Notes: generated by a model not told the origin, from the letters alone. DNA of 64,000 nucleotides from Eubacteriales bacterium (GCA_045659905.1 JAZRCT010000040.1:2003-66002); one strand, 5' to 3'; shown: positions 4,001 to 41,988, counted from the stretch's first letter. Program-made: numbers and translations.

Positions 4001-7000
4001 TTAGCCAATTCGTGCGTTTCTGTACGCTTCGGCGCTCTGTGCGTAGCACATAAATCTCTCTACGAGAGTCTTAAGCTCCGCCTTCTTTTCGCCGCTGTAC
4101 TCGTTTACTACGAAATCGTAGTAAGCCGCAAGATTGTAAGCGCCGCCCGCAGCCGTGCCGTCGACCGTGAACTCTATATCGCCTGCAAGCACGTATGCAA
4201 AGCTCGTGACCTCAAGGTAATCGCCGTCAGTGTCCGTGCCTACGGTAAATTCAAGCGTCCTTGAGCCCTGCTTAAACTCGAATTCAGAGCTATCGGTCAC
4301 CGTGCCGTCAAGGTAGAAGCGCACCGACGGAACAGCCCCCAGCACGAAGGTTGCCTCGCCTATACCGCTTCCCGCCTCGGGCGTTACCGCAGTACCGAGG
4401 GTGGGCGTGTTATCGGCGTCGTAATCCGTGCCGAGAATTTCGTCTATTACCGCAAGGTCGGAATCGGTCTTGCCAAAGTATGCGTAAGCGCTCCTTACGT
4501 AAGAGAGGATATCCAGAAGAAGCTTCTCCTCTGCCGCAGCAGCGTTATTCGCCGTAGCGTTCTCTACGTATTTGACAAGACTCATAGTGTATCTGCCGCC
4601 TAGCGTTCCGCCGTCGGTGTCAACCTCTGCCAAAAGCACCATATCCGCAAGCGCTGCATCCGCAGAAAGCGATACCGTCAGCGTATAGTAAGCTGTGCCT
4701 CCAATGTCTGTTATAGGAAGCGAGGTAAGCGCTGCGCCCTCATAAACGGTGCCGTTAAGCGTAAGCTTTGTCAGCGCCGCTATATTTGAAACGTAGATAT
4801 TGTATCTTAAATCCGAATAGAGCGAGATGCTCGATTTTACGGTAAAGTCGCTGAGAGCCTTTACTCTCAGGCGGTAGGTTGCGGTAAGAGTGTTCTCGGA
4901 TTCCTTTATAAATTCCGCAGCTCCAAGCGCCGTCAAGTAATCGCCCGAGGGTGCTTCTGCGCTCTTGTCAAGAGTAATAGCAAGAAGCTTTCCGTCGGTG
5001 CTCCTGCCAAGCATTACGCCTCCAACAGAGTCAGCCTCAGTCGAGCTGAGAGTGAATTTATCAAGGCTTGCCGCCTTTATCTCACATCCGAGCACACTGG
5101 TATCGGAATGAATCTTGCCGTTGCCGCTGTCAAAGAGCTTCACACTCTTGTCTGCCGAGGTAACGTCAAACCTACAATTCTCGTAGGATACGTGGGTGTT
5201 AGCAGTAGCGTTCGGCGTGTTGGAATCCTGATAATAGTATACGAGCGAGGTCGCCGTACCCTTAACGCTGAAGCCAACGTCGACAAACTTAAGGCTTACC
5301 TCCTTATCCTCCATATAATAATCGTCTCTGTCGGGATAGGTCGTGCCGTCCTTGTTGTTGCCTGTCCAAGCCGCAAAGCTTACTATTCCTCTGTTGGTCA
5401 GAACCATACCGCCGTTCTTCATTACAATCTCGGTGGGGAAGATATTTGCATCGCCCGAGCCGCCCCAAGGCTTAATTGAGAACGGTATCGCCACTCTGTC
5501 ACTTGGTGCGGTAAGGGTAAATCCGCCAAAGTCGACGGTAAGCGTGCCCTGAATCTGAGCTACGTTATTGTATTGCTCGTTCGACGCCATAGCGTAATCT
5601 CTGCGCATAAGGATAAACGCCGCACGGGGATTGTCACCGTAGCTGCCGTCTGCGTAAACGTTGCCCTTCATATACTCCTTAGCTACATTAAGCGCACCGT
5701 CGTTTTCATACTTATCCGTAATATCAAGGAAGGTGTCGTCGCCTGCAATAAAGCCGCCTTGCTCGTTGAATACTGCGAAGGGATATGCGTTAGCATCCGC
5801 ATAGGTGTAAGGAATTTCTCCGTACTCGGTAGCTACCGCCTCGCCAAGACGGTATACGGTATTCGTGCCGCTGACGCTCTCCTTACCGAGAGTAAGCGCC
5901 TTGCCTGCCGCATTGTATACGACGAAGCTCGTGTGAGTGGGAGCTGTCACCGTTGCAGGAAGAATTATTGCGGTGTATTCTCCGCCGCCGCAGCGCTCGT
6001 AGGCAAGCGATTCGTCGCTCCTCATATTAGCAAGCTTGTAATTTGTAAGGTCGGGATACATAACGCTGCCGCCCGTGAACACTACCGTCGAGGTCATATT
6101 ATTTTTGTTGTCGTTGCAGTCAAGAAGTCTTGCGCCGCTCGGAGCGCCGGTAAAGTCTACCGTACAGTTATCGAAATAATAGCCAAGCACAAGCGAGCCG
6201 CCGGTCTTACCGTCAAACTCTGATACCATATACTTCGAGTTGCCTATAAACCTGAAGGTAACGTCGGTAAAGCAGAAATCGAGCGCCTTTGACTTAGTGC
6301 TGTCACCGTTTGAATGCTGAAGTCCAAAGAGAGGAAGCGTTGCCTTGGGCGAGCCGTCGTCGTTAAAGCCGATGCGGTTGTTTACGATAGTACCGTTTTT
6401 GAATTCTATCGTAGACTTGCCGAGATAGGAGGTATTGTTAAAGTTAACTCCGCAGTCTCCGATATACGTGGTGCTTTCCAGCGTATAGCCGTTAAGGTCT
6501 ACTACGATTTTACCTCTTGCCGCATTGAAATTAGAGCCTGCCGTCGAGGTATATTCGTATCTTAAAACTATCGTCGCAACCGTATTTTCCTTGCCCTCGT
6601 CCTTTAAGAGGTCTCTTGCCGCACCTAGAGCTGCGCTCCAGGAGGTATTTGCCGACTTAAAGGCAGTGTCCTCAAACACGAAGAAGGGATAGTCTACTGC
6701 CGAAAGGTTCTTTCCTTCGTTTATATAGGCGGTCTTATCGCCAAAGGTCATAGGAAGAAGCTCGTAGGTAGACTTAGTGCCGTCGTCCTTGACCTCTATA
6801 AAGTATCTCTTTCCCTCGGTAGTGTTAAACGAAGTCGTGCCGTGCAAATAATCCTTCGCATTGCTTACTGCTGTCATATAGGTATATTTGCCGTTATATT
6901 TACCAAAGGTAACGCTGTCGTTTTCCGTATTAAGCGAAGAAAGGATAACGTTTGAAATATTATCGCAAATTATTTCGCCGCCGTTTATCACGAGGTGGTT

Positions 7001-9106
7001 GTTTATAAGGTCGGTATATCCGTAATTCTCTGTGAAATCAAAGAGCACGGGCTTATCGCCGCTTGGGAGGTTAGTCTTAAGGTCAAGCACGCAATCGTTC
7101 AGAGTTATGTTGGTATTTGATTTCATGGTGCAGGTGTTAGGTACTGCAACGTTATTCTCCTTCGTGGGGTTGGTCCAGGCACCGAAAAATGCCTCACCGG
7201 ACCTCACCGCATCGGGAGCAAATCCGAGCGTAACCTTTTCAAGAGTAACGTTCCACTGTTTCACCTTATCGCTCGTAGCCGTGCCTATCTGATTTGCGAA
7301 AATCGGACTCTTCAAGGTACGAAGCGAGCCATTCTTAATCACTATATTGGCGGGGGAGGTGTTCGTATTTCCGTAATAGAAGTCGAAAATAACCTTATCT
7401 CTCGTGAAGGTAAAGCCGCCAAGGTCTACGGTAAGCGTTCCGTTCGCCTTGTTAAATCCGCCGCTGTTTGCCGCATCGCCCGTGTTGGTGTAATCCTTGC
7501 GAAGCAGAATTTGAGCGTCGGCGTCGGGTTTTCCGTGAAGAAGACTTCCAATAGAAGCCGTAACGCTATTCCAGGTTGCGTGAGCGGAAATAAACTCGCC
7601 GCCCGAGAAGAGCAAGAAGGGATATGCGTCGGCGTCTGCCTTTGCGGTAGGAATTACGCCGTAATCGGTGACGTTGTTGTTCACCGTAAGGGTATAGATA
7701 TCGTAGTCACCCTCGGTCGTGCCGTCGGTGGTAAAGTTGGTATATTCACCCTCTGCGGTCTTGAAGTTGTCTGAAATCGAAGCGCCGCCCGCCTTAACCT
7801 TAAGCGACGGAAGCTCTCCGTCAGAGCCTATTCCTGCGGTGAGGGTGTCCTCGGCATCGGTTTTCGCAAAGGTGTACGCTGCGCCGTTGGTCACGAAGTC
7901 TCCTCCGAGAATATTGATATTAGCATCTGCGTAGGCGTTGCCTATCGTAATAAGCGTACCGCCGCTTGCAGGAGCGTTAGCTTCAAGGTCGAAGCTGCAA
8001 TCCTTATAGGTAAGATTGGTGACGGTATTTACTTTATGGTCGTTATGCCAGAAGTTCCAGAAAACACCCGATACCGAGCTTACCGTAAAGCCTGCGTCAA
8101 ATCCAAAGGTAACCTTATCAAAGGTAATATCGAAGGTCTTAATCTCGGTAGTATCGGCAAGGTAATGAGTAACGCCTATCGGGCTGTTTGACTTTGCGTT
8201 AATTCTACCGTTGGTAAATATTACCGAGGTTTCATAATCGTAAACGGTGTTTGAATTTATCACCGCATTTATAATGGTCTTGGTTCTTGCAAGCGTCTTT
8301 CCGCCAAGGTCTATAAGAACCGTGCCGTTTGTCGAGCCAAAGCTTATCTCATCGGTGTTGTCAAAGTCTGCTCGCATAAGTATTTCTACTCTGCTATCGG
8401 CATATTCCGAACCGGCAAGGCGCTTGTTTGCTATAGATACCGCAAGCTTAAGCGTTGCTGCGCCCTCGATAAGAGCGCCATCGCTGAATACGAGGAAGGG
8501 ATAATCCGTAGCGCTCATAAACTCCTCGCTGATTACGCCGTAGCGTGTCGAATTTTCCTCGCACGCAAGCGTGTAGGTCGCCATATAGGAGGCGTCGGTG
8601 CTTGCCTTGTGATAGCCCGCATAGCCGTCAGCCATAAGGTATGAGCCTGCGACGGACTTCGTCACCGCTTCGGGCATTATAAGCTTGGTATAATTCTCGC
8701 TTGAATCCTTAAAGAATTCTACTATGGACGCATTGGAGGAAACGCTTATCCATCTCTGCGAGGAAAGTCTTATCTCGCCGCCCGTCACGCCGTAGCTGAG
8801 CTTAAGCGCCGCCGAGGTGGGTGCGGGGAATATTACCGTCGCATCCTTCGAGTGAAGTCTCTCGTCAAGGTCGAACACGCAATCGGTAAAGTCTATATAG
8901 GCATTTACCGAAGCGCCCGACTTGATTGCCGATGAGCAGATAAGCTCGGTTGTGAAGGAATTTTCACCAAAGCTTATATTTACGCCGTCAAAATTGATAT
9001 CGAAGCTCTTATTTTCCGCCGTAGCGTCACTAAAGGATATAAGAGCCGTTCTTCCGAGCTTGATTTTACCGCCCGAAATATTTATCTCGCTCGCCGCAGT
9101 GCTTGC
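4001..9106 (-). pseudogene. C-terminal ~1701 codons of a giant secreted repeat protein, with 4 full copies of the ~300-aa module plus a unique C-terminal region. It is in frame with, and continuous with, ORF 9107-12319 across one TAG.
   Basis: The ORF track lists 4001-8878 (GTG-initiated). I translated 9106-8879 by hand (ASTAASEINISGGKIKLGRTALISFSDATAENKSFDINFDGVNISFGENSFTTELICSSAIKSGASVNAYIDFTDCVF) and found no stop and no ATG. The repeat module runs straight through the TAG. Confidence 0.8.
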
Positions 9107-12100
9107 CTAATTATCGTAGATAAGAGCGCCCGTCTTGTTTGCAGAGGTGAGAGTGTAGCCGTTAAGGTCAAGATTTACCTTAGCAAAGCCGCCAATGCCG
9201 CTGTATACGCCCGAGTCGTCAAGCGTGTAATCGGATTGAAGCTTTAAGGTGTATCCCGATACGAATGCCGCAAAGGCGTCCTTGAGGGTTGCGTATTCGC
9301 CAACCTTGGCATCGCCGTTATATACCGCTATCGGACTATCCGATACAGGTGCGCTATAAGCGAAGCCGCTCCGGTCGTCGGTCTCGGCAAGTCCTGCCTC
9401 AGATACGGTAATATCGGTAATCTGCTCGGTGACGAGAAGACCTCTTATATAAGCCTTCTTCGCTTCATTTCCGGAGGGGGAGAGCGAAAGCGTCAGCGAC
9501 TGAGTGTTCGTATCCGAGGGGAAGCCGTAATCAGGCTCGTAGACCTCGTAGGTAAATTCAACGTGTACCCATTCGTTTGCCTTGGTGGCTACGTTGAAAT
9601 ATACGTTATCGTAGTCGATAGTGCCGTACGCCTCTCTCTTGGTCATAGAGTTGAGCTTCACAACGAGAGTGCGGCTCACGGTATCGTATAAATCGAAGCC
9701 TACGGTAAAGCGTCTGCCGTAGTTTTCAGCCGTGATAGGCACTCCGCCCATAATCTGCTTATAGGTGAGAATCTGCGTCGGATTGCTGTAATATACCGAA
9801 AGAGGATTCGAGGACGAAGGCTTCTTCGAGGTTGCGGTAACTATGACCGATACCGCCGCCATATTATCTACGGTGTCCTCGGCAAAGGTTGCGTTTTTCT
9901 TCGTGGCGTTCGAATCGGTAAGAATTAGCTTGCCGTCGGCGCTCGAAAGCACCTCCTTTGCATCAACCTTTTCGTTCTTTGCCTTAAGAAGAAGCGTTAC
10001 CTCGCTTCCCTTATTTTCAACGATAAAGTCCGAAATATCTATTTCGTAAGTGCCTGCTCCACGGAGATTTACCGAGCCTAAAAGCTCTCCTTCGGTAGCG
10101 GTTGCGCTTTCTACTGCGTAAAGCTCGGCTATATTAGCCGCATCGTTTGCCACAGCAAAGCGGAATGCGTAGCCGTTGCCTGAGGTGAATTCAGCGGGTG
10201 CGGTAAAGGTATAATAGCCGCCGTTCGCCGTAAGCTCGCTTACCTCATCCGCCTTGGTGATAAAGCTCGTAGAGTATGCGCTGCCCATAGCGACGCCGTT
10301 CTTGCCGCAGAAGTCAGCGGGAATATTGACGGTGTAGGCAGAGCCGCCCGAAAGAAGCTCGGTCGGGGTAAATTCCCATACCACGCCGCCAAACGAGGAC
10401 TCCCAGATACCCTCAAGGGCGCTGCCGCCGAGAGATACCGTAATTTTTTCGACCTCGGCGAGCGTAGCCACGCCCGTAAAGCCTATCTTGATTTTAGCAT
10501 TAAGGTCGGTATTTCCCGCCTTATCCATAGGCGAGATATAGGCGATATCGATAGCTTCGTTCTTAAGGAAATATCCGACGTACTTAAAGAAGGCGTCGTA
10601 GGAATTTACGTTGTAATTCATATCGTTGCCCTCGGTAAGGGTATGACCTATCGGAAGCTCGAACTGTAAAAGAGGAATATCAAGCTCACGGCATATATTG
10701 TAAACGTTTACCGAATAGCTGTACGCAGCGTTGTAATCGTCCTGCATATTGCCCGTAACGAATACGGGACAGTGACCTGCGCTTATATCCTCCTCCTGCG
10801 AGCCGTTTGATGCGTATGTAAGCTGAACGCCGGAGATTATTTCCTTGCCTTGGTTGTCGCCATTTTCGTAGGTTAGCCAGGGCTGACGCTCTGCCGCACG
10901 GATTGTAAAGCCGGTTATGTCGTCCTTTTCGTCGGTAAGATGCCCCTCCTGATAGCGGGTTTCACCGTGGTGTCCGTCAAAATATCTGTCGGGCACGAGT
11001 GACGATAGCGCCTCGTTTATTGCCGCCTCCTTAGCGTCGGCGCTGGCGTAGCTGCCCTTAGCAAGCTCACTCTGAAGCACCTCCTCGCCGAGGTATGAGA
11101 ACCAGCCGCCCTTGGAGTTGCCGTATACGCCAAAGGCGTCGAGGTCGAATTTGATGTCTGCCTCGTTTTCGGAAATATGACGCAGATAACGCATCGCCGC
11201 AGTATTTACGAGCTTATCGTTATACATCATTACCGCATAGTTCATATGGTCGCCCGTGTTGCCCGAGCTTCCGTCGTAATAGCCAAAGCTTGCGTTTCTC
11301 GCCATAGGCATCCAGAGGTAGTCGAATACCACGTTAGCGTAGCCCTCGTAGAGGAAATTGTTAGAATGAGTGCGCAGGTACTGCGAGTCTGTGCCAACGC
11401 TCGTTCTCGGGTTGCCCGACGAGTTGGCAAGCGACATTACGGGTACTTCATTCGCAGGATTGGTGGGATATACGATATTGATATAAAGGTTCATATCAAT
11501 AAAGCTTCCGTCGGGGTCTACGCAGTCGTAAATATCCTCTGCCACGGTGTACTTAAGCTTGGTGTAAAGACCGTTTGCGTCCACGTGCGAATCCTTACAC
11601 TCTATATTGTTATACCAGATAACGTCAGAGGTAGTCGTCTTTCTCGTAGCAACGGTATCGCCCGTAGCCCACTTAACGCCTCGGTTAGGCTTCGAGGTCT
11701 TAAGGTCGGTATTCCAGTTGTCTACTATCTTCTCAAGCGTACCCTCGGTAGAGTGCTTGTCAATCTCCCAGAATACGGCGTTTAAAATGACGTTGCAGCC
11801 TGCGGGGCATACGAAATGCTCCCAGACCGCCTTGCCGCCCGAAAATCCGTCAAAGGTCAATATCTTTCCAAGCGAAAGCTGCTGTCTGAACGTCTGCGTG
11901 GAGCTTGCAAGCATTTCGGTGCTTTTCGTTGTGTGAAGATAGTCCATTACGATAACGACGTAACCGCGCTCAAGCATCGAGGTGATTATATTCACGTTGG
12001 AATCCGTGCCCGTCTTCACCGCCGTCGGATGGTTGACAGTGTAAAGAATTACGGGCGTGCCCTCATAGCCCGGCACGGTCGTTCCCTTCGCCGTATCGTA

Positions 12101-12319
12101 ATACACGGTATACTCAAATTTACCGACGTATTTATCGGTATGCTCTGCGGTGCTCTGCACGAGATAGCTCTCGTCAAACGCCGCCTTGATTTCTGTCATT
12201 TCGTCGGTGACGCTGTTCGCAAAAACGTTCACCGCTACAAGTCCCGTAACGAAGATAGCTAAAAGCAGCACGGTCGCCAAAATTCTTCTTACGAGCGAAA
12301 AATTCCTTCTTCCTTCCAT
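9107..12319 (-). CDS. N-terminal part of the giant secreted protein: signal/anchor peptide, alpha/beta-hydrolase (GxSxG: YGNSKGGW) esterase-like domain, Ig-like/beta-rich region, and the first repeat module truncated by TAG at 9107-9109
   Basis: AGGAGGA lies 6 nt before the ATG at 12319 (MEGRRNFSLVRRILATVLLLAIFVTGLVAVNVFA); the ORF-track start at 12352 has no spacing from the RBS. The nucleophile-elbow motif GNSKG is present. The ORF ends ...DLNGYTLTSANKTGALIYDN-TAG. Confidence 0.85.
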   Translation of the reverse strand: MEGRRNFSLVRRILATVLLLAIFVTGLVAVNVFANSVTDEMTEIKAAFDESYLVQSTAEHTDKYVGKFEYTVYYDTAKGTTVPGYEGTPVILYTVNHPTAVKTGTDSNVNIITSMLERGYVVIVMDYLHTTKSTEMLASSTQTFRQQLSLGKILTFDGFSGGKAVWEHFVCPAGCNVILNAVFWEIDKHSTEGTLEKIVDNWNTDLKTSKPNRGVKWATGDTVATRKTTTSDVIWYNNIECKDSHVDANGLYTKLKYTVAEDIYDCVDPDGSFIDMNLYINIVYPTNPANEVPVMSLANSSGNPRTSVGTDSQYLRTHSNNFLYEGYANVVFDYLWMPMARNASFGYYDGSSGNTGDHMNYAVMMYNDKLVNTAAMRYLRHISENEADIKFDLDAFGVYGNSKGGWFSYLGEEVLQSELAKGSYASADAKEAAINEALSSLVPDRYFDGHHGETRYQEGHLTDEKDDITGFTIRAAERQPWLTYENGDNQGKEIISGVQLTYASNGSQEEDISAGHCPVFVTGNMQDDYNAAYSYSVNVYNICRELDIPLLQFELPIGHTLTEGNDMNYNVNSYDAFFKYVGYFLKNEAIDIAYISPMDKAGNTDLNAKIKIGFTGVATLAEVEKITVSLGGSALEGIWESSFGGVVWEFTPTELLSGGSAYTVNIPADFCGKNGVAMGSAYSTSFITKADEVSELTANGGYYTFTAPAEFTSGNGYAFRFAVANDAANIAELYAVESATATEGELLGSVNLRGAGTYEIDISDFIVENKGSEVTLLLKAKNEKVDAKEVLSSADGKLILTDSNATKKNATFAEDTVDNMAAVSVIVTATSKKPSSSNPLSVYYSNPTQILTYKQIMGGVPITAENYGRRFTVGFDLYDTVSRTLVVKLNSMTKREAYGTIDYDNVYFNVATKANEWVHVEFTYEVYEPDYGFPSDTNTQSLTLSLSPSGNEAKKAYIRGLLVTEQITDITVSEAGLAETDDRSGFAYSAPVSDSPIAVYNGDAKVGEYATLKDAFAAFVSGYTLKLQSDYTLDDSGVYSGIGGFAKVNLDLNGYTLTSANKTGALIYDN

Positions 12320-12527
12320 ATACATTCCTCCTACGTATAAAATATTTACCATAAAAGTTATATCATATAAAATTCAAGAGAGGAATAGCTAAACGGCATT
12401 TTTTCAAATATTTTTTGTTTCAAATACACAATTTTCACAAAATTAGATAAGCTTTATTGTTGATATTGCCTATATATCAATATAACCCTTTGAAAAAGCG
12501 GAAACTTCACCAATAAAAAAGGGGGCT

Positions 12528-12885: not shown

Positions 12886-13000
12886 TTGCCACGTGGCAAT
12901 ATCACTCTTTGCGTGAGCAAAGAATATCACTGTCACCTAAGCGACAATATCACCCTCGCCGTGGTGAGGATATCACTGCCACCAAAGGTGGCTATATCCC
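12886..13000. repeat. hairpin-linker array A: 5 units of [5-7 bp-stem hairpin] + AATATCACT-like linker
   Basis: Units: TTGCCAcgTGGCAA-tATCACT; CTTTGCgtgaGCAAAG-AATATCACT; GTCACctaaGCGAC-AATATCACC; CCTCGCCgtGGTGAGG-ATATCACT; GCCACCaaaGGTGGC-TATATCCC. The array starts at the TAG stop of the 12992-13699 gene. Confidence 0.8.
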
Positions 13001-13699
13001 AATAAGGTGAGAATAGTGCGAAAACTCGCCGCCGACAAGCTCTTTCCCGTCGAAATACACGGTAGTAACCGAAGCGTTGTAAGGGAAGTCCACCTCCTGC
13101 GTCACACGCTCGGGGGCAACGCCGATAAGCCTTGCGTAAAAGGCTCTGATAACTGCTGCGTGAGCGGTAATCAGCACGCACTCGCCGATATGTTTTTTTG
13201 CTATCGAAAGCAGCGCATTGTGAAATCTCTCGGCTGCGGCGCTTACAGGCTCTCCATCGGGGGGTGTGAAAATGCCGAAATTCTGCTTCCAGCCTACGGT
13301 AAATTCCTCGCCGTATATCCTCTCTATATCCTCGATTTTGGAATTTTCCCACTTTCCGATATAGATTTCCCGAAGCTCACGCATCGGCACGATTTCTATA
13401 CCACGGTACTCCGCATTCGGACGGGCGGTATCATAGGCTCTTATCAAATCGCTTGAATATATAGCCGAAATCGGCTCGCCCTTGAGGAAATCCGCCGTCG
13501 CCTGCGCCTGGACGTGTCCTCTTTCGGAAAGTCCTAAGTCGGTATGACCGAGAAAGGCGTGCTCTGCATTGGCAATGCTTTCTCCGTGACGCACCACGAG
13601 CAGTCGAGTGCTATATCTTTCGTCTACGAAAAGCGGTGTCATATCACGCTGAATACCGCTCTCGCTATCCTTTATTTCTTCGGTAATTATCTCTTTCAT
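12992..13699 (-). CDS. histidine phosphatase family protein (phosphoglycerate-mutase-like)
   Basis: 235-aa ORF with the LLVVRHGESIANAEHAFLGHTDLGLSERG (RHG catalytic) motif; GGAG before the ATG. Confidence 0.85.
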   Translation of the reverse strand: MKEIITEEIKDSESGIQRDMTPLFVDERYSTRLLVVRHGESIANAEHAFLGHTDLGLSERGHVQAQATADFLKGEPISAIYSSDLIRAYDTARPNAEYRGIEIVPMRELREIYIGKWENSKIEDIERIYGEEFTVGWKQNFGIFTPPDGEPVSAAAERFHNALLSIAKKHIGECVLITAHAAVIRAFYARLIGVAPERVTQEVDFPYNASVTTVYFDGKELVGGEFSHYSHLIGI

Positions 13700-14119
13700 A
13701 AAGCTCCATTCTGATTGCCGATATAATAGGCATCTTATAAGCAGTCGTTGTATTTTTCGGGAATTGAGCCGCCCCGCCTCGGCATAAATGCGGCTAAAAA
13801 GGATAAGTCAATCCTCAAAGCGGTGCTGCCGACACGCACTTTCAAAAAAGCTTCTCAAAGTCGAACGGCGGCAAAAATTCGTAACTTTTCGTAATTTCAC
13901 GAGTGCATATCCTTGTGAATTTTTATTCACCGCCAATAAGGACACTTTTTCGAAAAATCTCCCGTCAAATAAAAGCGTGTTTTGCAAGTTCAAAGCACAA
14001 GAGCGGTAGCCGTGCCCCTTGCCGAATCAAAAGCAAAATCCCAAAGCTCCACCTCGCTTTCGGTAAGGGTCTCCACAAGCGCCGACTTGTACCAACGAAT
14101 GACGAGCAAGCGCCCCAAA

Positions 14120-14376
14120 GAATCCGCCCGATAGTTCGAGATAGCAAATCCGTAACCAAAAAAGGATAAATCCACCCGATTCAACTCCAAATCCGTCGGC
14201 TTTGTCTCAAAATCCGTCCACTTTAATAATAAATCCGTCCCGTTCAGACGAAAATCCACCCAATTTAATGGCAAATACACCCGCTTTAGTGAAAGTACGC
14301 CAGCCTTAGCTAAAAGTACGCACGCTTTAGCAATAAATACGCAGTCTGATAAGAAAAATCCCGCAATAAAGCACGG
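14120..14376. repeat. 21-bp tandem array I (~12 degenerate units, consensus AAATCC(R)(Y)CC-N11)
   Basis: Unit starts at 14146, 14168, 14189, 14210, 14231, 14252, 14273, 14292, 14313, 14335 and 14356 (spacings 22,21,21,21,21,21,19,21,22,21). Confidence 0.8.
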
Positions 14377-15010
14377 ACAACCCCACAATAAACTACAAAT
14401 ATTTAAATCAAAAGCAACAACACGGATATTATACCACCAAACCGAAGCAATGTCAATAAACGCAAAGCAGCGCCGGCGTCAGCGTCTGTGTCAGAAGTTC
14501 CGCACCAAAAATAAGGCGCAATTCAAAGCGGTCATCGCCGCATCTCGCAAGAGGAAAGGTCGGGGCGAGACGAAGCAAAATCAATTCGGAATCCAAAGCA
14601 TAAATCAACAGCCAAATCAAATAAAAAGGCTAAGTAATCCACCACGCAAAATAGAGCATTTTTTCTTTCCGTTTTTCTAAAATCAGCGCCATAAAATTCT
14701 GAATTTTCCGCATATCACAACCTCAATTATACAAAACTTTTTACCGCATATTTTCGTAATATTTTGGAATTTTTCGCAAAAATCAGAAAAATTCTTCAAA
14801 AAACGCTCAAAAAAACAAGGAGCAGCTAAAACCGTGACAATTTTTACCATATTTAACCATATTTTCCCATTTTCGTAGCAAAATGTATATCAGAGCCAAA
14901 AAATCCGCCCACCCCGAAGCTTGGCGCATGCACGGTCAAAATCTAAGCTGCCACAGCGCCTGCGACATTTTTTTGCACTGCTCCGTAGGTCTTTTCAGCG
15001 CTCTGTTGAA

Positions 15011-15181
15011 TTTTTTAAGAGTTTTATTGGCTTTTCGAGTGATAAATCAGCTTTTTAGCATTTTTTCGTTTCCTGAGGCGTTTTTTCGGCTTTTTGTTCG
15101 TTTTTTCATTAAAATAAAGCTTTTTTGCTGTATTTTCTCGCCGTAGTGTGGCGTTTTCGCCCATATTTTTTCTATTTTGTT
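15011..15181. repeat. helically phased T-tracts (T4-T6 every ~10-11 bp); predicted intrinsically curved DNA
   Basis: T-tract starts at 15011, 15022, 15032, 15052, 15061, 15069, 15081, 15091, 15101, 15121, 15133, 15154, 15166 and 15175. Confidence 0.7.
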
Positions 15182-15364
15182 TGAAAAATGCGTTCTCACG
15201 ATACAAATATCGTCTCAAGGCTATCTCCAAGGCAATTTACGGTCGCAAAAAGCCGCTTCAAAGCCGCAAAGAGCCCCTTAATTGTCAAAAACGCCGCTAC
15301 CCGAACTTTTATATCAATCAAGAATCTCCTGCCGATGCCAAGCGGTTTTTTAGCGTATCCTTAT

Positions 15365-15482
15365 AAAAAATTGCAAAATCACCTCAAAAAGCGCCTGTTT
15401 TTTCCTTGTAAAGCAAAAAATCTTTAAAAAATCCCCTAAAATTCGCAAAAAAATCACCCAAAATCCGCAAAATTGCGCCAAA
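15365..15482. repeat. helically phased A-tracts (A3-A7 every ~10-11 bp) ~90 bp upstream of parS-1
   Basis: A-tract starts at 15365, 15375, 15386, 15415, 15426, 15438, 15447, 15460, 15469 and 15480. Confidence 0.7.
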
Positions 15483-15570
15483 TCGGGTGCTAAATCAGCC
15501 GAGCCTTAGGCGCTTAAGCCTTAATTGCATATTCAAGGGAAATTCAAAGGGCAGACTGTTTATCAGGCAA

Positions 15571-15586
15571 TGTTTCACGTGAAACA
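15571..15586. promoter_or_regulatory. parS: parS site 1 (TGTTTCACGTGAAACA), ParB/Spo0J binding site
   Basis: Perfect 16-bp palindrome matching the Firmicute parS consensus tGTTNCACGTGAAACa. It extends to the 20-bp palindrome AATGTTTCACGTGAAACATT. Confidence 0.9.
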
Positions 15587-15793
15587 TTAAAATCCAGGCA
15601 AAAACAGCGAAAAAATATATTTCCCCGCCAAATCCAGGTTGTTTCAAGTGAATTGTCCCCTTATTTACCTTAAAACCGAATTGAGCGAGATTTTGCCGCA
15701 AAAATATGGGGGATTCGTGAGCTTACGGCTAAAAAGGGAACTCAAAAGCTTTTACGGCAAGAATGTAGCAGAATTCAATTGATAAAATCCAAT

Positions 15794-15809
15794 TGTTTCA
15801 CGTGAAACA
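15794..15809. promoter_or_regulatory. parS: parS site 2 (TGTTTCACGTGAAACA)
   Basis: Identical 16-mer 223 bp from site 1, flanked by imperfectly symmetric AAATC(C)AAT arms. A degenerate relative (TGTTTCAAGTGAATTG, 4 mismatches) lies at 15640-15655. Confidence 0.9.
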
Positions 15810-15973
15810 TTGATTTCCCCATCACGATTCGCCCGGAAACAAGAAAAGCCACAAAGCATAAATAAAAAATCGCCAAAAACGCAAAATTTCACAAGCTTCA
15901 CCCAAAATCACCTCAAAGATTACTCCAAAACCGCTTCGAAACACCTATAAAATGCTATAAACCCCAAGCTTAT

Positions 15974-16105
15974 ACTCGGATTGTAACACAGATTGCAACT
16001 CAGATTAAAACTCATATCAAAGCTCGTATTAAAACTCATATTAAAGTCAGTATTAGAACTCCGATTAAAGCTTCAACAAAGACTGCTTCAATTCCGTCCA
16101 ATTCA
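15974..16105. repeat. 12-bp tandem array (~10 degenerate units, consensus ACTCRKATTAAA)
   Basis: actcggattgta/acacagattgca/actcagattaaa/actcatatcaaa/gctcgtattaaa/actcatattaaa/gtcagtattaga/actccgattaaa/... read directly. Confidence 0.8.
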
Positions 16106-16420
16106 GCAAAAACGCCGAAATTTGTACAAAAACCAGTTAAAATACGCCTTGCAGTAAAAATTATCGCATTAAATTGCAAAAAATCGTAGCGTTTAACCGC
16201 AATTTCCGCAAAACGTCTCAGCTCACCGCTCGCAATTTCTCGGAAGTCAAGCCCAAGCCCGCTAAAACTCAGACCAAGGGTTTGCAGCACAGCAAAAGAA
16301 CACAGCCCTGCCGCATACGAACTCAATCACAAACGCCAACTCGAGAAAAATCGCACTCAAAGCTCAAAATCCAACCCATCATAACAATTTCGATATAACC
16401 AAAGTCAGAGTCGTTTTGCT

Positions 16421-16660
16421 AAAAAGCTCAATTCAGAAACGTTTTAGCAAAAAATCTTGATTCAAAGGCGTTTCGGCAAAAAGCTCAATTCAGAGGCACT
16501 TCAACGTGGCAAAAGATTAACGAAAGGGCATTTTGGTTTAAAAATTTCGCTTCAACGGCAATTTCGCTTCGAAAACCTATTCAGAAGAAGGATACTGCTT
16601 AAAAACTTGTCAAAAAATCATTTTTCCAGCAAAAGCCCTCAGTATAACCGGAATTTCACC
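16421..16660. repeat. ~30-bp tandem array (8 degenerate units, each opening with A4-A6)
   Basis: Unit starts at 16421, 16449, 16478, 16511, 16540, 16572, 16601 and 16631, e.g. AAAAAGCTCAATTCAGAAACGTTTTAGC / AAAAAGCTCAATTCAGAGGCACTTCAACGTGGC. Confidence 0.75.
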
Positions 16661-16693
16661 GTCGGCTCGCATTTCTTCGTGCCGTTCTTTGTG

Positions 16694-16860
16694 CTTAGGG
16701 TAGTTTTCTTGCTGCTTAAGCTAGGATTATGCGCTTAAGGTGGGGTCCTCGACGCTTAAGCCGGCTTTCTTGGCGCTTAAGACGGGTTTCTCGGCGCTTA
16801 AGGCAGGGTTATCGGTGATTAAGCAGCTTTCCGAAGGGCGCTTCGCCTTTTAATTGTTTG
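16694..16860. repeat. 21-bp tandem array II (8 units built on GCGCTTAAG)
   Basis: CTTAAG-like cores at 16694, 16715, 16734, 16755, 16776, 16797, 16818 and 16841 (spacings 21,19,21,21,21,21,23). Confidence 0.8.
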
Positions 16861-17065
16861 GCAGCCGTTTCCGCCTCATTCCGTCATAAAATCCCCGACA
16901 GACAACTTATTTTGACGCATTTCGACATAAATTTGGTATTAGTCTGCGCTCTCTTTTAGTTTTCCATTTTTTACCATAAGTTATCAAAAATATAAAAATT
17001 CCAAGCTATGACACGCAAAAGTAGGTCTATTTCTGGATTTTTTGAAAAAAACGTCGATTTACCGA

Positions 17066-17094
17066 TTGACTTTTTCCTTTTATTACTATATAAT
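17066..17094 (+). promoter_or_regulatory. sigma-A-type promoter of parA-parB (TTGACT-17-TATAAT)
   Basis: -35 TTGACT at 17066-17071, a 17-nt spacer, and -10 TATAAT at 17089-17094, ~110 nt upstream of the parA ATG. Confidence 0.7.
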
Positions 17095-17201
17095 CATTAT
17101 ATAACATATATATTAATCATTTAATAATGCATAAGTGTGGTTTTTGCACGATATTTCATTTGCATAGCTATCACTTACAAAAGGAGTATATAACAAAGCT
17201 T

Positions 17202-17975
17202 ATGGGCAAAATCGTTTCTTTCTCCAACCAAAAGGGCGGAGTCGGCAAGACGACCTCTTGCGTGAACATATCGGCACAGATTGCCAACAAGGGCAAAAAG
17301 GTTCTTATGATTGATATGGATCCTCAGGGCAACGCCACGAGCGGACTTGGACTTCCGAAGTCTAAAATCAAGAAGACCATTTACGACGTCGTTATCGGCA
17401 AATGCTCTATGGAGGATGCTATAATAAAGACGAGGTTTAAGAATCTTTCGGTAGTACCCGCTACGATAAACCTTGCAGGCGCAGAGCTTGAGCTTCACGA
17501 CCTCGAGGAGGCTGCGGACGAGAATCTCAATTTCTTTAATAAGGAAATAAGCTCGGTTAAGGACGATTACGACTACATATTTATAGATTGCCCTCCCTCG
17601 CTCGGTATGCTTACCGTAAAGGCGCTTTCGGCGTCTGACGGCGTAGTAATTCCTATGCAATGCGAGTTCTATTCGCTTGAGGGTATGTCGCAGCTTTTCA
17701 ACACGATAAAGCGCATCCATCAGCTTTTCAATCCCTCGCTTCGTGTAGTGGGAATTCTTCTTACTATGTATAACGGCAGACTTACGCTTACAAATCAGGT
17801 AGTAGCAGAGCTTAGAAAATATTATCAGGACAAGCTCTTTAAGGTGCCGATTTCAAGGACGGTCAGAATCTCGGAAGCCCCCGGCTACGGTGAGCCTATT
17901 TGCTATCACGACCCTTACGGCAAGGGCTCGCTTGAATACGCAGCGGTAGCAAAGGAGCTTATGACGAGAATTTAA
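17202..17975 (+). CDS. parA: chromosome partitioning ATPase ParA/Soj
   Basis: MGKIVSFSNQKGGVGKTT (deviant Walker A). AAGGAG lies upstream of the ATG at 17202; the ORF-track start at 17127 adds an implausible N-terminus. Confidence 0.93.
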   Translation: MGKIVSFSNQKGGVGKTTSCVNISAQIANKGKKVLMIDMDPQGNATSGLGLPKSKIKKTIYDVVIGKCSMEDAIIKTRFKNLSVVPATINLAGAELELHDLEEAADENLNFFNKEISSVKDDYDYIFIDCPPSLGMLTVKALSASDGVVIPMQCEFYSLEGMSQLFNTIKRIHQLFNPSLRVVGILLTMYNGRLTLTNQVVAELRKYYQDKLFKVPISRTVRISEAPGYGEPICYHDPYGKGSLEYAAVAKELMTRI

Positions 17976-18045
17976 GCCGTAGGCAAAAGCCCCCGAACAT
18001 CTTACAAATACTCGCCCTTGCGGCGGCAGAAACGGAGAACTAAAA

Positions 18046-18935
18046 TGCCAAGAAAGAACAGAGGCCTCGGCAGAGGCATTGACGCTATATATCTTGAAAA
18101 TGCGCTCGACAATATGGGCGGCACAGGCGAAAACACTATCACTATGCTGAATCTCGGAATGGTTGACCCCAAGAGCGACCAGCCGAGAAAATATTTCGAT
18201 AAGGAAGCGCTTGAGGCACTCTCCGAGTCCATTAAGCTTAACGGACTTCTTCAGCCTATTATCGTACGTGAATACGCCGACGACAGATATCAGATAATCG
18301 CAGGCGAGAGAAGATTCAGAGCCTCAAAGCTTGCGGGACTCGAAGAAATCCCCGCAGTTATTCTCGACAGAGACGACAGAGAAGCCGCAGAGCTTTCACT
18401 TATCGAGAATATCCAAAGAGAGGACTTGAATCCCGTAGAGGAGGCGCTTGCATACAGAGCGCTTATCGAAAACCACTCGCTCACTCAGGAGGAGCTTTCG
18501 GCAAGAATAGGCAAGAGCAGAAGCGCAATTGCCAACTCTATGCGTCTTATCGACCTTCCCGACGAGGTGCTTGAAATGGTTGCTAACCGAGATATCTCGG
18601 CAGGTCACGCAAGAGGACTTCTCGGTCTTAAGGACAGAGCCAATATGCTCCCCCTCGCCAATAAAATAGTAGAGTACGACCTTTCGGTAAGACAGCTTGA
18701 GGAGGAGGTAAAGCGAATCAACCGCCAAAAGCCTCCCGTAGAAAACGAAGTAGAGCTTCCTCTCGTTGATTACTTTAGAGAGATGGAGCTTAAAATTCAA
18801 TCGCATCTTGGCAGAGTAGTAAAGATTCAGGGCAAGGGCAAGAAGAAGTCCGTAACCCTCTTTTACGAGGACAACGAGGACCTCGACGAGCTTCTTAAGA
18901 CGATATGCGGCAAGGATTTCCTTGACGAGGTATAA
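18046..18935 (+). CDS. parB: chromosome partitioning protein ParB/Spo0J
   Basis: MPRKNRGLGRGIDAIY..., the IAGERRFRASKLAGL box and an HTH region. It lies directly downstream of parA; GGAG precedes the ATG at 18046. Confidence 0.93.
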
Positions 18936-20714: not shown

Positions 20715-20881
20715 TCCAATGCGTCAAGCTTTGGACTTCATCCAAGCGTAAGTCTTGGACTTAATCCATCGAAGATGGACTTCACCCGAGCGTAAGCGAG
20801 GATATCACTGCCACATTAGTGGCAATATCACTCTTTGCGGGAGCAAAGAATATCACTCCTCGCCGTGGCGAGGAATTTCCC
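20715..20881. repeat. hairpin-linker array B: 3 units [TCCAxx hairpin]+CTTMA followed by 4 units [hairpin]+AATATCACT
   Basis: TCCAA-11-TTGGA-CTTCA; TCCAAGcgtaagtCTTGGA-CTTAA; TCCATCgaaGATGGA-CTTCA; (degenerate)-ATATCACT; GCCACattaGTGGC-AATATCACT; CTTTGCgggaGCAAAG-AATATCACT; CCTCGCCgtGGCGAGG-AATTTCCC. Confidence 0.8.
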
Positions 20882-23003: not shown

Positions 23004-23024
23004 AATTATAATTTTTGACCTTGA

Positions 23025-23288
23025 TTAAATCAGAAGTAAAGCCGTAATAAAAATAAGCATACAGAAAAAGAATCCTGCGCCAAAAAACAAGGCTCTCTCC
23101 GAAAGCCTCGGCGTACGACTCTTTTTTATTCTTTGTTTTTTGTTTTTATTGATAATCCTGCACGCCTCACTGACTATTTCGTCAGAAACCGGCTCGCCTA
23201 TATCCCCTTTGATAATGAAATAGGCTTCCTCAAAGATATCACTCTCGGGATTTTTCAAAAAAACAACTCTTTTCTGATATCCGCGCAT
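23025..23288 (-). CDS. hypothetical small tail-anchored membrane protein
   Basis: 87-aa ORF with a C-terminal hydrophobic helix (ALFFGAGFFFCMLIFITALLLI). No family recognised with certainty. Confidence 0.5.
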   Translation of the reverse strand: MRGYQKRVVFLKNPESDIFEEAYFIIKGDIGEPVSDEIVSEACRIINKNKKQRIKKSRTPRLSERALFFGAGFFFCMLIFITALLLI

Positions 23289-23414
23289 AATTCACCCTTG
23301 TATCACGGTGCTTGGTTTATGCGCCGTGCGCACAGCCTCCGTCAAATACTTATGATATTATAGACAAAGCTATGCGCACTCTATTCGCCATCCTCTCGAT
23401 TTAATCAAAAAGGA

Positions 23415-23810
23415 TTAAACGGGAGCTTCAACCTCGTTGCCGTTCTCGTCTACGTAAACCTCAATTTCCTCGTAGACCTCGTCGTCTGCAAGCTCTACCT
23501 CGTTACCGTCCTCGTCTACGTAAACCTCAACCTCAACGTAGTCAGCGTCCTCTACCTTTGCCTTGGGCTTAGGACCTCTCTTCTTTCTCTTCTTCTCGGG
23601 GAGGGGAATATCAAAGGTGTCGTCAAGAAGGTCGTCTATCGAGATGTTGAAAAGCAGCTTGATTTCAAGAAGCTTTGCTACCTCAGGATAAGACTGAGCG
23701 CTTTCCCACTTATAAACCGCCTGACGAGAAACGCCAACTGCACATGCAAGTTCGTCCTGGGTAATCTTTTTGATTTTTCTGAGTCTTACGATTTTCTCTG
23801 CGAAGGTCAT
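23415..23810 (-). CDS. XRE-family helix-turn-helix protein with an acidic tandem-repeat tail
   Basis: N-terminus FAEKIVRLRKIKKITQDELACAVGVSRQAVYKWESAQSYP (Cro/C1 HTH). C-terminus VEVYVDEDGNEVELADDEVYEEIEVYVDENGNEVEAPV. Confidence 0.8.
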   Translation of the reverse strand: MTFAEKIVRLRKIKKITQDELACAVGVSRQAVYKWESAQSYPEVAKLLEIKLLFNISIDDLLDDTFDIPLPEKKRKKRGPKPKAKVEDADYVEVEVYVDEDGNEVELADDEVYEEIEVYVDENGNEVEAPV

Positions 23811-23858
23811 TGTTATGTCCTCTCTTTACGTTTTATTTTTATTTTATATTTTAAAAAA

Positions 23859-31574: not shown

Positions 31575-31881
31575 ATGTAAATCCTCTTTTTATTAAATTT
31601 AAAGTAAGTGACGAAAAGCCTTTTTATCGTGTCGTTTGCGAAGCGCAAATTACGTAAATAAATAATATAACGGTAGGAGTATTAATAGTAGGGGGTGTTA
31701 GTTTGTGGGAAAACCCTGAAATATGGCTGGGACAAGCCTTTTTTTCTCCACGGTAACCTAACATTCCTGAGGATAGAAAAGGTGTGCTCCTTTTAAATCA
31801 AATTTCCCACGGAAAATAAACCCTTTATTATACCCTTTTCAATAACTTTTCAACCGGTTCTCAACGGGTATAGGTGGAAAA
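31575..31881. other. dnaA-dnaN intergenic region with degenerate DnaA-box-like 9-mers (candidate oriC element)
   Basis: TGTGGGAAA (31704-31712), TTCTCCACG (31744-31752), TTTCCCACG (about 31803) and GGTGGAAAA (31872-31880), each 2-3 mismatches from TTATCCACA/TGTGGATAA. An AT-rich stretch lies at 31575-31680. No perfect box is seen. Confidence 0.4.
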
Positions 31882-33288
31882 CTAAAGCTCCTTTACCTTC
31901 TTTATAATTTTCTTAATCTGGCTCTCGGTATTTTTCATAGTCCTAATATCAATTTCAACCTTATTGCAGGATGCCATAATGGTAGTCCTGTCACGGTTGA
32001 AGATATCGCCGATATCCTGATAGGATTTATCTGTAAGCTTCTTGATTATGTATACCGCAATATGGCGTGCGTTAGCTACGTTATTAGTCTTTCTTTTAGA
32101 CTTGAGAGCCTCCTCGGGAAGATTGTAATGCTTGCTTACCTCTTTTAAAATTCGTTCTACAAGAATATCGGTAGGCACGTTGCCGGGGTCTATTGCCGTA
32201 ATGCACTTATCTACCGTGTCCTTATTGATTTCAGCGCCGTGAATGGTGTGAAGCATATGCATCTTCTTTATAACGCCCTCTATCTGCCTTATATTCTCGT
32301 GCAGACGGTCGGCAAGATATTCAACGAGGTCGTTTGGAATTACCATATCGAGCATCTCGCTCTTTTTCTTTATAATAGAGGTACGAAGCTCGGGGGACGG
32401 GGGCTGTATGTCGGCTATAAGTCCTCCCTCAAATCTCGTCCTTATACGATCCTCAAGAGGCTTAATTTCGTGAGGCGGACGGTCTGAAGTGAGTATTATC
32501 TGCTTATTCGATTCGTAAAGATAAGAGAAGGTGTGGAAAAATTCCTCCTGAGTTGCAACCTTACCCGATAAAAACTGTATATCGTCGATAAGAAGAACGT
32601 CGGCTCCTCTGTATTTCTCTTTAAACTTATCCATAGAAAATGAGCCGATAGCCTGCACAAGCTCATTCAGAAATTCCTCGCATTTGATATAAACTATCTT
32701 AAGGCTCGGGAACTTTATTTTCATATGGTTGATAACCGCACACAGCAGGTGTGTCTTGCCAAGACCTGAATTTCCGTATATGAAAAGAGGGTTATAATCG
32801 TTGGCGGGGAAGGAATTTGCGACCGCCTCGCACGCCTTCTTTGCAAATTTATTGGAAGCGCCCTCTATGAAGTTATCGAAGGTGTATTCGTCAAGCTTTG
32901 AGCTGCCCTCCTCTATCTTCTCCGAAAGAAGCTGTCTTATCTTTTCCTCTCTTTCCCTGTTTTCCTTTTCCTCCTCAGGGGTAAGCTCTCGTTCTTCCTC
33001 TATTTCTTCATCGTCGTCGTTCTTTAAATTACTGTTCTTTACGACAATAATATCAACCTCAACCTCAAAGCCTATAACGGCGCAAAGAGACTCGGATATG
33101 ATATTTTTAAACCTATTTTGAAGGATAGATTGTCTTAAAGAATTGATTGTGCTGAAAACGGCGCTTTTGTCGTCAAGCGAAACCAGCCTGAATTCACCGA
33201 ACCAAAGGTCGAAGGTAGAAGGAGCGATATTAAGCTTTTGCTTGATTTCGGGAAGCATTATATCTACTATGCTTTGAAGATCGTCCAT
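31882..33288 (-). CDS. dnaA: chromosomal replication initiator DnaA
   Basis: 468 aa; Walker A GNSGLGKTHLL and a C-terminal DNA-binding region (ARHIAVYIIKKLT). It ends with TAG. Confidence 0.97.
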   Translation of the reverse strand: MDDLQSIVDIMLPEIKQKLNIAPSTFDLWFGEFRLVSLDDKSAVFSTINSLRQSILQNRFKNIISESLCAVIGFEVEVDIIVVKNSNLKNDDDEEIEEERELTPEEEKENREREEKIRQLLSEKIEEGSSKLDEYTFDNFIEGASNKFAKKACEAVANSFPANDYNPLFIYGNSGLGKTHLLCAVINHMKIKFPSLKIVYIKCEEFLNELVQAIGSFSMDKFKEKYRGADVLLIDDIQFLSGKVATQEEFFHTFSYLYESNKQIILTSDRPPHEIKPLEDRIRTRFEGGLIADIQPPSPELRTSIIKKKSEMLDMVIPNDLVEYLADRLHENIRQIEGVIKKMHMLHTIHGAEINKDTVDKCITAIDPGNVPTDILVERILKEVSKHYNLPEEALKSKRKTNNVANARHIAVYIIKKLTDKSYQDIGDIFNRDRTTIMASCNKVEIDIRTMKNTESQIKKIIKKVKEL

Positions 33289-33341
33289 CTTTGATTCCTC
33301 TCTTTTAGCGTCTTATTATAATATAAACAATACTTAACATT

Positions 33342-33370
33342 ATTATAACATATAAATATTTAAAAAGCAA
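33342..33370 (-). promoter_or_regulatory. candidate dnaA promoter (TTGCTT-17-TATAAT with TGT extension) inside a ~150-bp highly AT-rich stretch
   Basis: The minus strand reads TTGCTTtttaaatatttatatgtTATAAT. A second TATAAT-like element lies at ~33316. Confidence 0.4.
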
Positions 33371-33435
33371 CAAAAAATAAAAGAAAAATATAAAATTCCG
33401 AAAAACTGAAAAAGAAGAAAATTTAAAAATAAAAA

Positions 33436-33804: not shown

Positions 33805-33842
33805 AAATTATTCCTTTCGGGGAAGTGTAATAAAATTTCAAG

Positions 33843-41859: not shown

Positions 41860-41988
41860 TAAGCCCTAGCCTTGCCGGCTTGGCGCTTTACTTAAGCTTT
41901 CGTTTGGCGATTTACACGCTTCACTTAACTTTAGCTTGGCGCTTCGCTTAGCTTTAGCTCCGTGCTTTTCTTAGCTTAGCGCTTCACC
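41860..41988. repeat. degenerate GGCGCTT/CTTAGC-rich low-complexity repeats filling a 170-bp spacer inside the leu operon
   Basis: tggcgctttacttaagc.../tggcgatttacacgcttcac.../ttggcgcttcgcttagctttagc... read directly. It resembles the GCGCTTAAG array at 16694-16860. Confidence 0.6.

Follow-up and report, generated by a model that had tools for sequence, protein, structure and literature searches.

Why should a bacterial chromosome carry several kilobases of gene-free, repeat-laden DNA beside its partition genes, and what in such DNA, if anything, is maintained? The question is raised by a 64,000-nt stretch of Eubacteriales DNA (GCA_045659905.1, JAZRCT010000040.1:2003-66002; hereafter the window), in which a gap of 3,502 nt runs from the start codon of a minus-strand phosphatase gene to the parA ATG at 17202. 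Segment 13700-17201 is a divergent intergenic region, with a histidine-phosphatase gene on the minus strand to its left and parA-parB on the plus strand to its right, and it is the origin-proximal centromere region of a Clostridia chromosome, its parS sites lying mid-gap beside canonical parAB. A first-pass annotation, made by a model from the sequence alone, had listed an extended centromere or ParB-loading region among its explanations for this gap, and that explanation fits, given the mid-gap parS, the canonical parAB and a helical phasing that is specific to the locus and centred on parS. We favour, with about even confidence, the reading that this is a parS centromere region in which selection acts on the shape of the flanks and not on their sequence.

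The spacer and its parS sites

The features on which the argument turns are given below, with array calls by Tandem Repeats Finder (TRF) and a second repeat finder marked as such.

12992-13699, minus strand: histidine-phosphatase gene (Pfam His_Phos_1, E=2e-46), which bounds the gap on the left and is its syntenic left neighbour in most of 80 related loci
14120-14376: 21-bp array of ~12 units; plus-strand unit AAATCCGYCC followed by 11 nt, minus-strand unit nTAAAGnGGnCGGATTT (TRF and repeat finder)
14900-15500: phased T-tracts followed by A-tracts in the left parS flank, predicted to be intrinsically curved, with 10.25-bp periodicity
15414-15483: 11/22-bp A-tract array (TRF and repeat finder)
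15571-15586: parS site 1, a perfect 16-bp palindrome TGTTTCACGTGAAACA matching the consensus
15640-15655: degenerate parS-like site with 4 mismatches, its left half intact
15794-15809: parS site 2, a perfect 16-bp palindrome TGTTTCACGTGAAACA, lengthened by its flanks to an inverted repeat of 19 nt
15974-16072: 12/24-bp array (TRF and repeat finder), absent from the sister species L091
16405-16667: degenerate 28-29-bp array with TCAGA anchors, clear over 16405-16497 and, beyond 16497, traced by eye through TCAGA-type anchors to ~16667; absent from L091
16691-16835: second 21-bp array of 6-7 units with palindromic core GCGCTTAAG, absent from L091
17066-17094, plus strand: parA promoter TTGACT-17-TATAAT, 11/12 consensus match
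17202-17975, plus strand: parA, encoding a Soj-type ATPase (Pfam AAA_31, CbiA, ParA)
18018-18935, plus strand: parB, Spo0J-type (Pfam ParB_N and HTH_ParB, with a GERRFRA motif in the translation); the true start is likely the ATG at 18045

A ParABS system is recognized here by an adjacent Walker-type ParA and ParB, the latter with ParB_N, a helix-turn-helix domain and the GERRxR motif for binding cytidine triphosphate (CTP), by the 16-bp palindrome TGTTNCACGTGAAACA, for which ~0.17 chance matches would be expected at <=3 mismatches, and by an origin-proximal position, which is judged from the dnaA neighbourhood, the position of oriC itself being uncertain. At <=3 mismatches the 64 kb contain no match other than those at 15571 and 15794, and parS is the only significant inverted repeat in the gap. 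The dnaA gene lies at 31882-33288, ~15-16 kb from the gap, with dnaN, recF, gyrB and gyrA at 24.5-31.6 kb, and the dnaA-dnaN-recF-gyrBA block as a whole is found ~12-16 kb rightward. The first-pass annotation was accurate in this part of the map, both in its two perfect parS palindromes plus one degenerate copy and in its consensus-like promoter ahead of parA; its claim of strand divergence on a large scale did not hold, as the plus-strand genes form only an island of four at 17.2-20.6 kb (parA, parB, a membrane protein and a phosphopantetheinyl-transferase-like protein), and minus-strand genes resume at 21 kb with RNase J, gyrA, gyrB, recF, dnaN and dnaA.

No credible gene lies in the gap, as had been claimed for ~3.4 kb of it, whether judged by open reading frames (ORFs), hexamer scores or six-frame Pfam searches. 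The longest ORF in 13700-17201 has 132 aa (13990-14388, minus strand) and reads through the 21-bp array, so that it is indeed, as first described, the repeat in translation. A heptad-repeat protein was considered because 21 bp equal 7 codons, and was rejected, the frame being broken into 43-aa pieces in a close relative (L082). Under a hexamer coding model trained on the window's own genes, all 17 gap ORFs of >=50 aa scored negative, compared with +0.6 to +1.1 for the genes of the window, and six-frame translation of the gap, with stops masked, gave no Pfam family at E<=0.1. The larger ORFs within the expanded spacers of other species resemble junk translations, and the relatives carry no intact genes of which this might be a remnant; a decayed gene or pseudogene was rejected on these grounds. 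At an ORF threshold of 120 aa, no ORF-free stretch of the window other than the gap exceeds 600 nt, and at least 20 of the 29 ORF-free stretches >1.5 kb in ~1.3 Mb of related loci are the phosphatase-parA spacer, several of the remainder being the parA-parB spacer.

These loci were drawn from a ParA search, which gave 80 of them in species-level genomes of uncultured Clostridia from gut and rumen at 80-90% identity (labelled Oscillospiraceae, 'uncultured Ruminococcus' and Eubacteriales metagenome-assembled genomes, or MAGs), and closer relatives were reached via near-identical proteins. Exact-protein look-up of the window's ParA and phosphatase found no matching record, and a JGI metagenome scan with the phosphatase gave a sole match of 31% identity. 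Gene order is kept across the related loci, from the phosphatase (minus strand) through the gap, parA, parB and the membrane protein to RNase J and gyrA (both minus strand). In the 64 related species with a complete gap, the phosphatase-parA spacer ranges in length from 222 nt to ~6.4 kb; nearly all related loci hold 2-7 parS in it, and where the gap is >2 kb the parS cluster lies inside it (mean relative position 0.59), with non-coding DNA on both sides. The spacers are AT-rich, with a GC content of 29-44% across species, and a consistent strand asymmetry was discarded as a shared feature, as AT skew changes sign among species. Many species also carry extra parS between parA and parB, sometimes with kilobase-size expansions: this second spacer, 42 nt in the window, is ORF-free over 1-2.6 kb and has tandem arrays of its own in several species (L020 10766-12273, L032 10763-13355, L075 10763-12528, and also L021, L024 and L068).

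The 21-22-bp iteron-like arrays, the AT-rich DNA and the adjoining parAB are what one would look for in a displaced or secondary replication origin built of iterons, which the first-pass annotation had put forward and which we regard as extremely improbable. No DnaA box TTATCCACA with <=1 mismatch and no relaxed box TTNTCCAC occurs in the gap, the few relaxed boxes in the window cluster at dnaN-dnaA, and cumulative GC skew falls monotonically through 13-34 kb, with no minimum at the gap; there is no rep gene either, and blastn against PLSDB and INPHARED matched no plasmid or phage record. Neither a DnaA-box cluster or cognate rep gene nor a skew switch, which would mark an iteron origin, was found. 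A mobile element was dismissed as well, there being no terminal inverted repeats in addition to parS, and no large inverted repeat joins the T-tract and A-tract blocks. Beside dnaA itself (31575-31881 and 33289-33842) no consensus DnaA boxes are present, and the dnaA-dnaN spacer holds degenerate TTYTCCAC-type boxes. To the right of dnaA, over 38-64 kb, almost every gene is encoded on the minus strand, and no turn of the cumulative GC skew occurs anywhere in the window.

Helical phasing and sequence turnover

AAA/TTT tracts in the gap are phased at 10.25 bp, with z=11.4 over 14900-15500 and z=10.5 over 15850-16900, both scores exceeding the 95th percentile of dinucleotide-shuffle maxima. This agrees with the phased T- and A-tract blocks that had been described here, and tracts repeated at 10-11 bp over several turns place the DNA among phased A-tract sequences, for which curvature is predicted from the phasing. 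The periodicity extends to the lineage: the normalised 9.5-11.5-bp power is >10 in 41% of the 500-nt windows of 23 expanded gaps, compared with 3.5% outside (Mann-Whitney p~2e-73), short gaps are also phased (median 12.2 vs 4.5), and gap phasing exceeds that of other intergenic pieces at the same loci (11.6 vs 6.6; p=5e-8, n=74 vs 29). It is strongest within ~700 bp of parS and weaker farther out (Spearman rho -0.28).

Tandem arrays are likewise concentrated in the spacer, at a density of 0.62 per kb inside gaps vs 0.147 per kb outside (~4x). The 112 kb of gaps from the window and 64 species yielded 70 non-redundant arrays, and in 59% of these the period falls no more than 0.1 turn away from a multiple of 10.5 bp, vs 20% expected (binomial p=1.7e-12), the mode being 20-22 bp and the periods clustering at 21, 42 and similar values. 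In the window, 9 of the 17 TRF rows fall inside the gap, which makes up 5.5% of its length. The array blocks of the first-pass annotation were recovered as at least five tandem arrays, some with slightly different bounds, and its concern that the repeats might be scattered genome-wide was not borne out within the window, where the array motifs are local to the gap and not spread over the rest of the 64 kb. Its statement that the periods are multiples of the helical repeat holds for the A/T phasing and the 21-bp arrays, and fails for the 12/24-bp and 28-29-bp arrays. Outside the gap we noted arrays at 20731-20796 (24-bp units), 23428-23534 (33-bp) and 41917-41977 (23-bp), of which the 24- and 23-bp arrays lie in intergenic spacers and the 33-bp array within 23004-23858, a segment with coding potential; this genome may be prone to short arrays in general, though they are far sparser than in the par gap.

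How much of this is kept between species was assessed against relatives in which 4-fold-degenerate sites are 75-78% identical. Two pieces of the gap are constrained in this comparison (13700-13950 and 14619-14885, both ~85% identical), two are near-neutral (14326-14604 at 71%, and the parS region 15429-15842 at 67-74%), and other stretches, including most of ~14885-15429, are unalignable to close relatives. Against L088, where 4-fold sites are saturated (43-49%), only 14750-14873 and 16961-17103 survive, at 77-78%; the latter, the parA promoter region, is 78% identical to L088 and ~92% to L090-L093. Contigs L090 and L091, of which L091 is the sister species named above, have a ParA 100% identical to that of the window and 92.7% identity over 16961-18100, and both are without a counterpart of window 15842-16961, the segment between parS and the parA promoter that holds the 12/24-bp, 29-bp and GCGCTTAAG arrays. 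In its place stands a 1.4-kb stretch with 40/82-bp and 26/78-bp arrays, which shares no 12-mers with the window segment. L091 retains two parS sites, and its gap shows a power of 10-31 at 10.0-10.25 bp, vs 2.6-5.7 in parAB coding DNA. Relatives that are 92-95% identical in the left gap differ by indels of 20-21, 34-36 and 235 nt, which are whole repeat units, and the number of units in the 21-bp array at 14120-14376 varies among close relatives. Turnover of the filler outpaces neutral point substitution; of the blocks and phasing whose conservation in syntenic relatives had been raised as a check, the arrays are replaced and the phasing persists, as does the preference for array periods near multiples of 10.5 bp.

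All six contigs from the 94% relatives break at this spacer, and among the 80 species contigs 8 terminate <=1.2 kb from parA. Break-prone contigs are those of L001, L007, L024, L051, L061, L068 and L077, of L082-L087 and of L090, together with one scaffold with Ns. The exact copy numbers of the window's arrays are provisional, given the frequent contig ends at this place and the Ns in that scaffold; the layout is common to independent assemblies from four samples, which partly overlap, and an assembly artefact is unlikely as the cause of the overall architecture.

Turnover of this kind is what neutral, slippage-prone filler would display, that is, a mutational hot spot gathering functionless duplications, whose periodicity would go back to a curved ancestral promoter region and to whichever unit sizes happen to be duplicated, with fork stalling at ParB-parS or lax constraint between two divergent promoters as possible causes. 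The spacer varies 30-fold in length and is commonly short, its filler is at or below the identity of 4-fold sites or cannot be aligned, its arrays are species-specific with unit numbers that differ even among near-identical relatives, and assemblies frequently break in it, all of which speak for such filler. Phasing, however, is also present in unique, non-array DNA (14900-15500), was regained after full replacement of the sequence in L091, peaks near parS and exceeds that of other intergenic DNA; moreover, array periods are strongly non-uniform, and unneeded DNA is normally deleted from bacterial genomes. We consider neutral filler less likely than selection on shape, and yet the main rival and a serious one.

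Binding of proteins to one face of the helix, or curvature, had been proposed from the periods, and the helical phasing is real. The proposal does not stand for the arrays as conserved sequence-specific sites: they contain no parS half-sites and are replaced between sister species, and are therefore not conserved sequence-specific binding arrays. For the same reason we think it unlikely that they are operator- or iteron-like arrays bound on one helix face by a regulator of parAB or the phosphatase, or by an accessory centromere protein of the kind seen in plasmid centromeres. The 21-bp units do consist of a conserved core and a variable spacer, one of the cores, GCTTAAGC, being palindromic, the motifs are local to the gap, and the palindrome and direct repeats of a conserved module (below) look protein-binding; yet the arrays are not kept in a sister species with identical ParA, no candidate DNA-binding gene is nearby, the two genes after parB encoding the membrane protein and the phosphopantetheinyl-transferase-like protein, and no Noc-binding sites were found in the arrays.

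Selection on the shape of the flanks would leave slippage free to replace their sequence, and a mechanism can be outlined on this basis. After loading at parS, ParB-CTP clamps slide over kilobases and bring about condensation of the DNA. Here they would slide into gene-free flanks that are kept AT-rich and intrinsically curved, the curvature would fix a plectoneme apex or bend at the parS cluster, and the bend, together with the gene-free spacer, would promote ParB bridging, condensation and a compact partition complex, and perhaps SMC loading, while slippage and unequal exchange of ~21-bp units would continually replace the arrays. Plectonemes are pinned by intrinsic curvature (PMC6301789), and supercoiling enhances ParB condensation, lowering the ParB concentration needed, while ParB itself pins no plectonemes (PMC11602141). 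In its most specific form, which we offer tentatively, the locus would be a 'regional centromere', a conserved parS within gene-free, phased minisatellite DNA whose curvature and periodicity are selected to mechanically organize the ParB (and SMC) complex, e.g. by supercoil pinning at parS.

Several points weigh against selection on shape. Kilobases of filler are dispensable for partition, because many species have spacers of 220-600 nt, and tandem duplication of already curved DNA would carry the phasing along without selection. The 12/24-bp and 28-29-bp periods of the window are off whole multiples of the helical repeat. The p-values for phasing are inflated, because windows overlap and species are related, and the phasing controls are mostly coding DNA or the small intergenic set (n=29). 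The curvature, moreover, is predicted from the phasing, and ParB occupancy and supercoil pinning are predictions from sequence.

The phosphatase side of the gap

Three further features lie between the phosphatase gene and the phased tracts.

13700-14427, minus strand: putative 5' leader of the phosphatase transcript, ~720-730 nt, including the 21-bp array and lying downstream of a perfect promoter
14428-14456, minus strand: perfect sigma-70-type promoter TTGACA-17-(TG)TATAAT, a 12/12 match with extended -10, pointing to the phosphatase gene
14745-14885, plus strand: conserved module of ~110-140 nt with a TCGTA-N5-TACGA-type palindrome, A-runs, an invariant AAAAACA(C/A)GGAGCA and CCATWTTT direct repeats ~10-11 bp apart

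The leftmost fifth of the gap is probably transcribed as a long, repeat-bearing phosphatase leader, because the perfect minus-strand promoter at 14456-14428 would give rise to ~720 nt of RNA with 21-nt repeats. The first-pass annotation is corrected in this respect. Both promoter hexamers are invariant in L082, L084 and L085, and L088 has an equivalent 12/12 promoter 430 nt upstream of its phosphatase gene, without the leader array. The gene-proximal part of the leader, 13700-13950, is the constrained piece named above (~85% identity in relatives vs 75% at 4-fold sites). This conserved 250 nt upstream of the phosphatase contains, within 13878-13919, a conserved tandem TTCGTAA motif (ATTCGTAACTTTTCGTAATTTC) and, after it, a hairpin (13896-13919) whose tail on the plus strand is T-rich; the two could represent a regulatory site or else a small antisense terminator. 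Near 14470 a GC palindrome resembling the RacA ram site was dropped, as it is not conserved in relatives.

A function at the level of RNA, as a long non-coding or leader transcript whose repeats fold or bind a protein, would draw on the conserved, perfect minus-strand promoter, which would transcribe the 21-nt repeats, and on a weak terminator-like hairpin at 16832-16851 (plus strand). It could cover at most the left ~730 nt, however, and AT skew varies in sign among species, the leader array is absent in L088, and the long structured RNA entertained in the first-pass annotation is not supported: a search of Rfam 15 gave no match, whether at the gathering threshold or with E<=1, sliding minimum-free-energy z-scores average -0.24 and -0.34 on the two strands, and the conserved core has no consensus structure. 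We judge an RNA-level function to be very unlikely.

The conserved module, a putative DNA regulatory element, was found by nhmmer in ~25 loci, always in the orientation of parA, the phosphatase start being 220-2,200 nt away and parA 320-4,600 nt. Its motif occurs once in the 64-kb window, as it does per locus apart from the two exceptions below, and is confined to the par gap in most loci. Identity to relatives is 85% and 77% where 4-fold sites are at 75% and 43-49%, respectively; its indels do not keep a reading frame, and the alignment yields no consensus RNA fold (0 predicted pairs). L002 and L003 have a second, inverted copy, the extra one of L002 being weak, such that the pair brackets the parS cluster (L002 7390-7503 and 9560-9594; L003 6810-6910 and ~9618); in L075 the module lies at ~11698. 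The bracketing inverted copies resemble the boundaries of an invertible or insulated segment. A Zur-like box for the palindrome, and response-regulator or sporulation-sigma (CATA) elements for the CCATWTTT repeats, were considered as speculative likenesses.

Elsewhere in the window, two huge minus-strand ORFs at 4001-8878 (1625 aa) and 9107-12352 (1081 aa), with the Big_5 Ig-like domain as their only family match, correspond to a single 2763-aa protein in L082 (4088-12379) and may be a split or variable surface protein. A match to the Gut-1 RNA of Rfam (RF01706) at 50717-50787 on the plus strand, with 50.5 bits vs a gathering score of 50, is placed in intergenic DNA upstream of the gene at 48852-50510.

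Significance and comparison with known systems

Should the flanks prove to act mechanically, this would be the first natural case of shape, and not sequence, as the conserved part of a bacterial chromosomal centromere. The variants of 0.2-6.4 kb would then form a natural allelic series for the effects of flank length, curvature and lack of transcription on ParB-CTP sliding, condensation and SMC loading, and the rapidly evolving centromeric repeats of eukaryotes would have in this locus a tractable parallel, the centromere paradox in bacterial form. Even if the filler is neutral, it is a striking, locus-specific exception to bacterial genome compaction, a likely strain marker of the variable-number tandem repeat type for uncultured gut Clostridia, and a recurrent cause of contig breaks beside parAB in short-read MAGs. 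No description of such an expandable, phased parS spacer was found in the literature searched, and the gap belongs neither to the repeat centromeres of plasmids nor to the iteron origins or the Rfam families; the features that define each of them were looked for and are lacking.

Clusters of parS beside parAB are also known from Caulobacter, Mycobacterium and Corynebacterium. Myxococcus xanthus has a 3-kb cluster of 22 parS ~4 kb upstream of parA (PMC3899335). The gap is like these chromosomal clusters in its 16-bp parS of universal consensus, of which several lie upstream of parAB, in its origin-proximal position and in its CTPase-type ParB. There, however, the repeated element is parS itself, whereas here two perfect parS and one degenerate copy stand amid non-parS arrays and phased tracts, and the DNA around parS holds no genes, spans a 30-fold range of lengths and is replaced from one sister species to another.

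Plasmid centromeres can be built of repeats, e.g. the 12 x 43 bp of F sopC and the 11-bp iterons of R1 parC. Further examples are the parS heptads of pSM19035 (PMC9499535) and parH of TP228 (PMC3130281). Helically phased short repeats upstream of a parA-type operon are common to these and to the gap, and AT-rich spacers suggest bent or pliable DNA. In the plasmids each repeat is a conserved binding site for the centromere protein, while the arrays here contain no ParB site, not even a half-site, and are unconserved, being replaced in a sister species; the system here is, moreover, chromosomal, with a type Ia-like ParB/parS. The likeness to iteron origins lies in 21-22-bp direct repeats, each with a conserved core and spaced two helical turns apart, and the difference in the absence here of a Rep gene, DnaA boxes, a skew switch and conservation of the iteron sequence.

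Minisatellites with a 10-bp periodicity are proposed as insulators in a preprint (bioRxiv 10.64898/2026.08.08.743475). They and curved, mechanically acting DNA share with the gap a ~10-bp period laid over tandem repeats and a proposed function in DNA mechanics; organisms and context differ from those of the helical-period minisatellites and plectoneme-pinning DNA, and the mechanics proposed here are predicted from sequence.

A comparison with eukaryotic centromeres is meant as an analogy only. CDEII of the point centromeres of budding yeast is AT-rich and free of a defined sequence. Regional centromeres based on satellites turn over rapidly (PMC11620609). The gap resembles these in placing a segregation function in DNA of fast turnover, in which composition, periodicity and repeat structure persist, and differs from them in its scale of kilobases and not up to megabases, in the lack of histone-based specification and of meiotic drive, and in a strictly conserved parS. 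What differs here, set beside the parS clusters and the plasmid centromeres, is that the repeats are not ParB sites and are unconserved, that the gene-free expansion is a lineage-wide hot spot specific to this locus, and that the physical periodicity persists.

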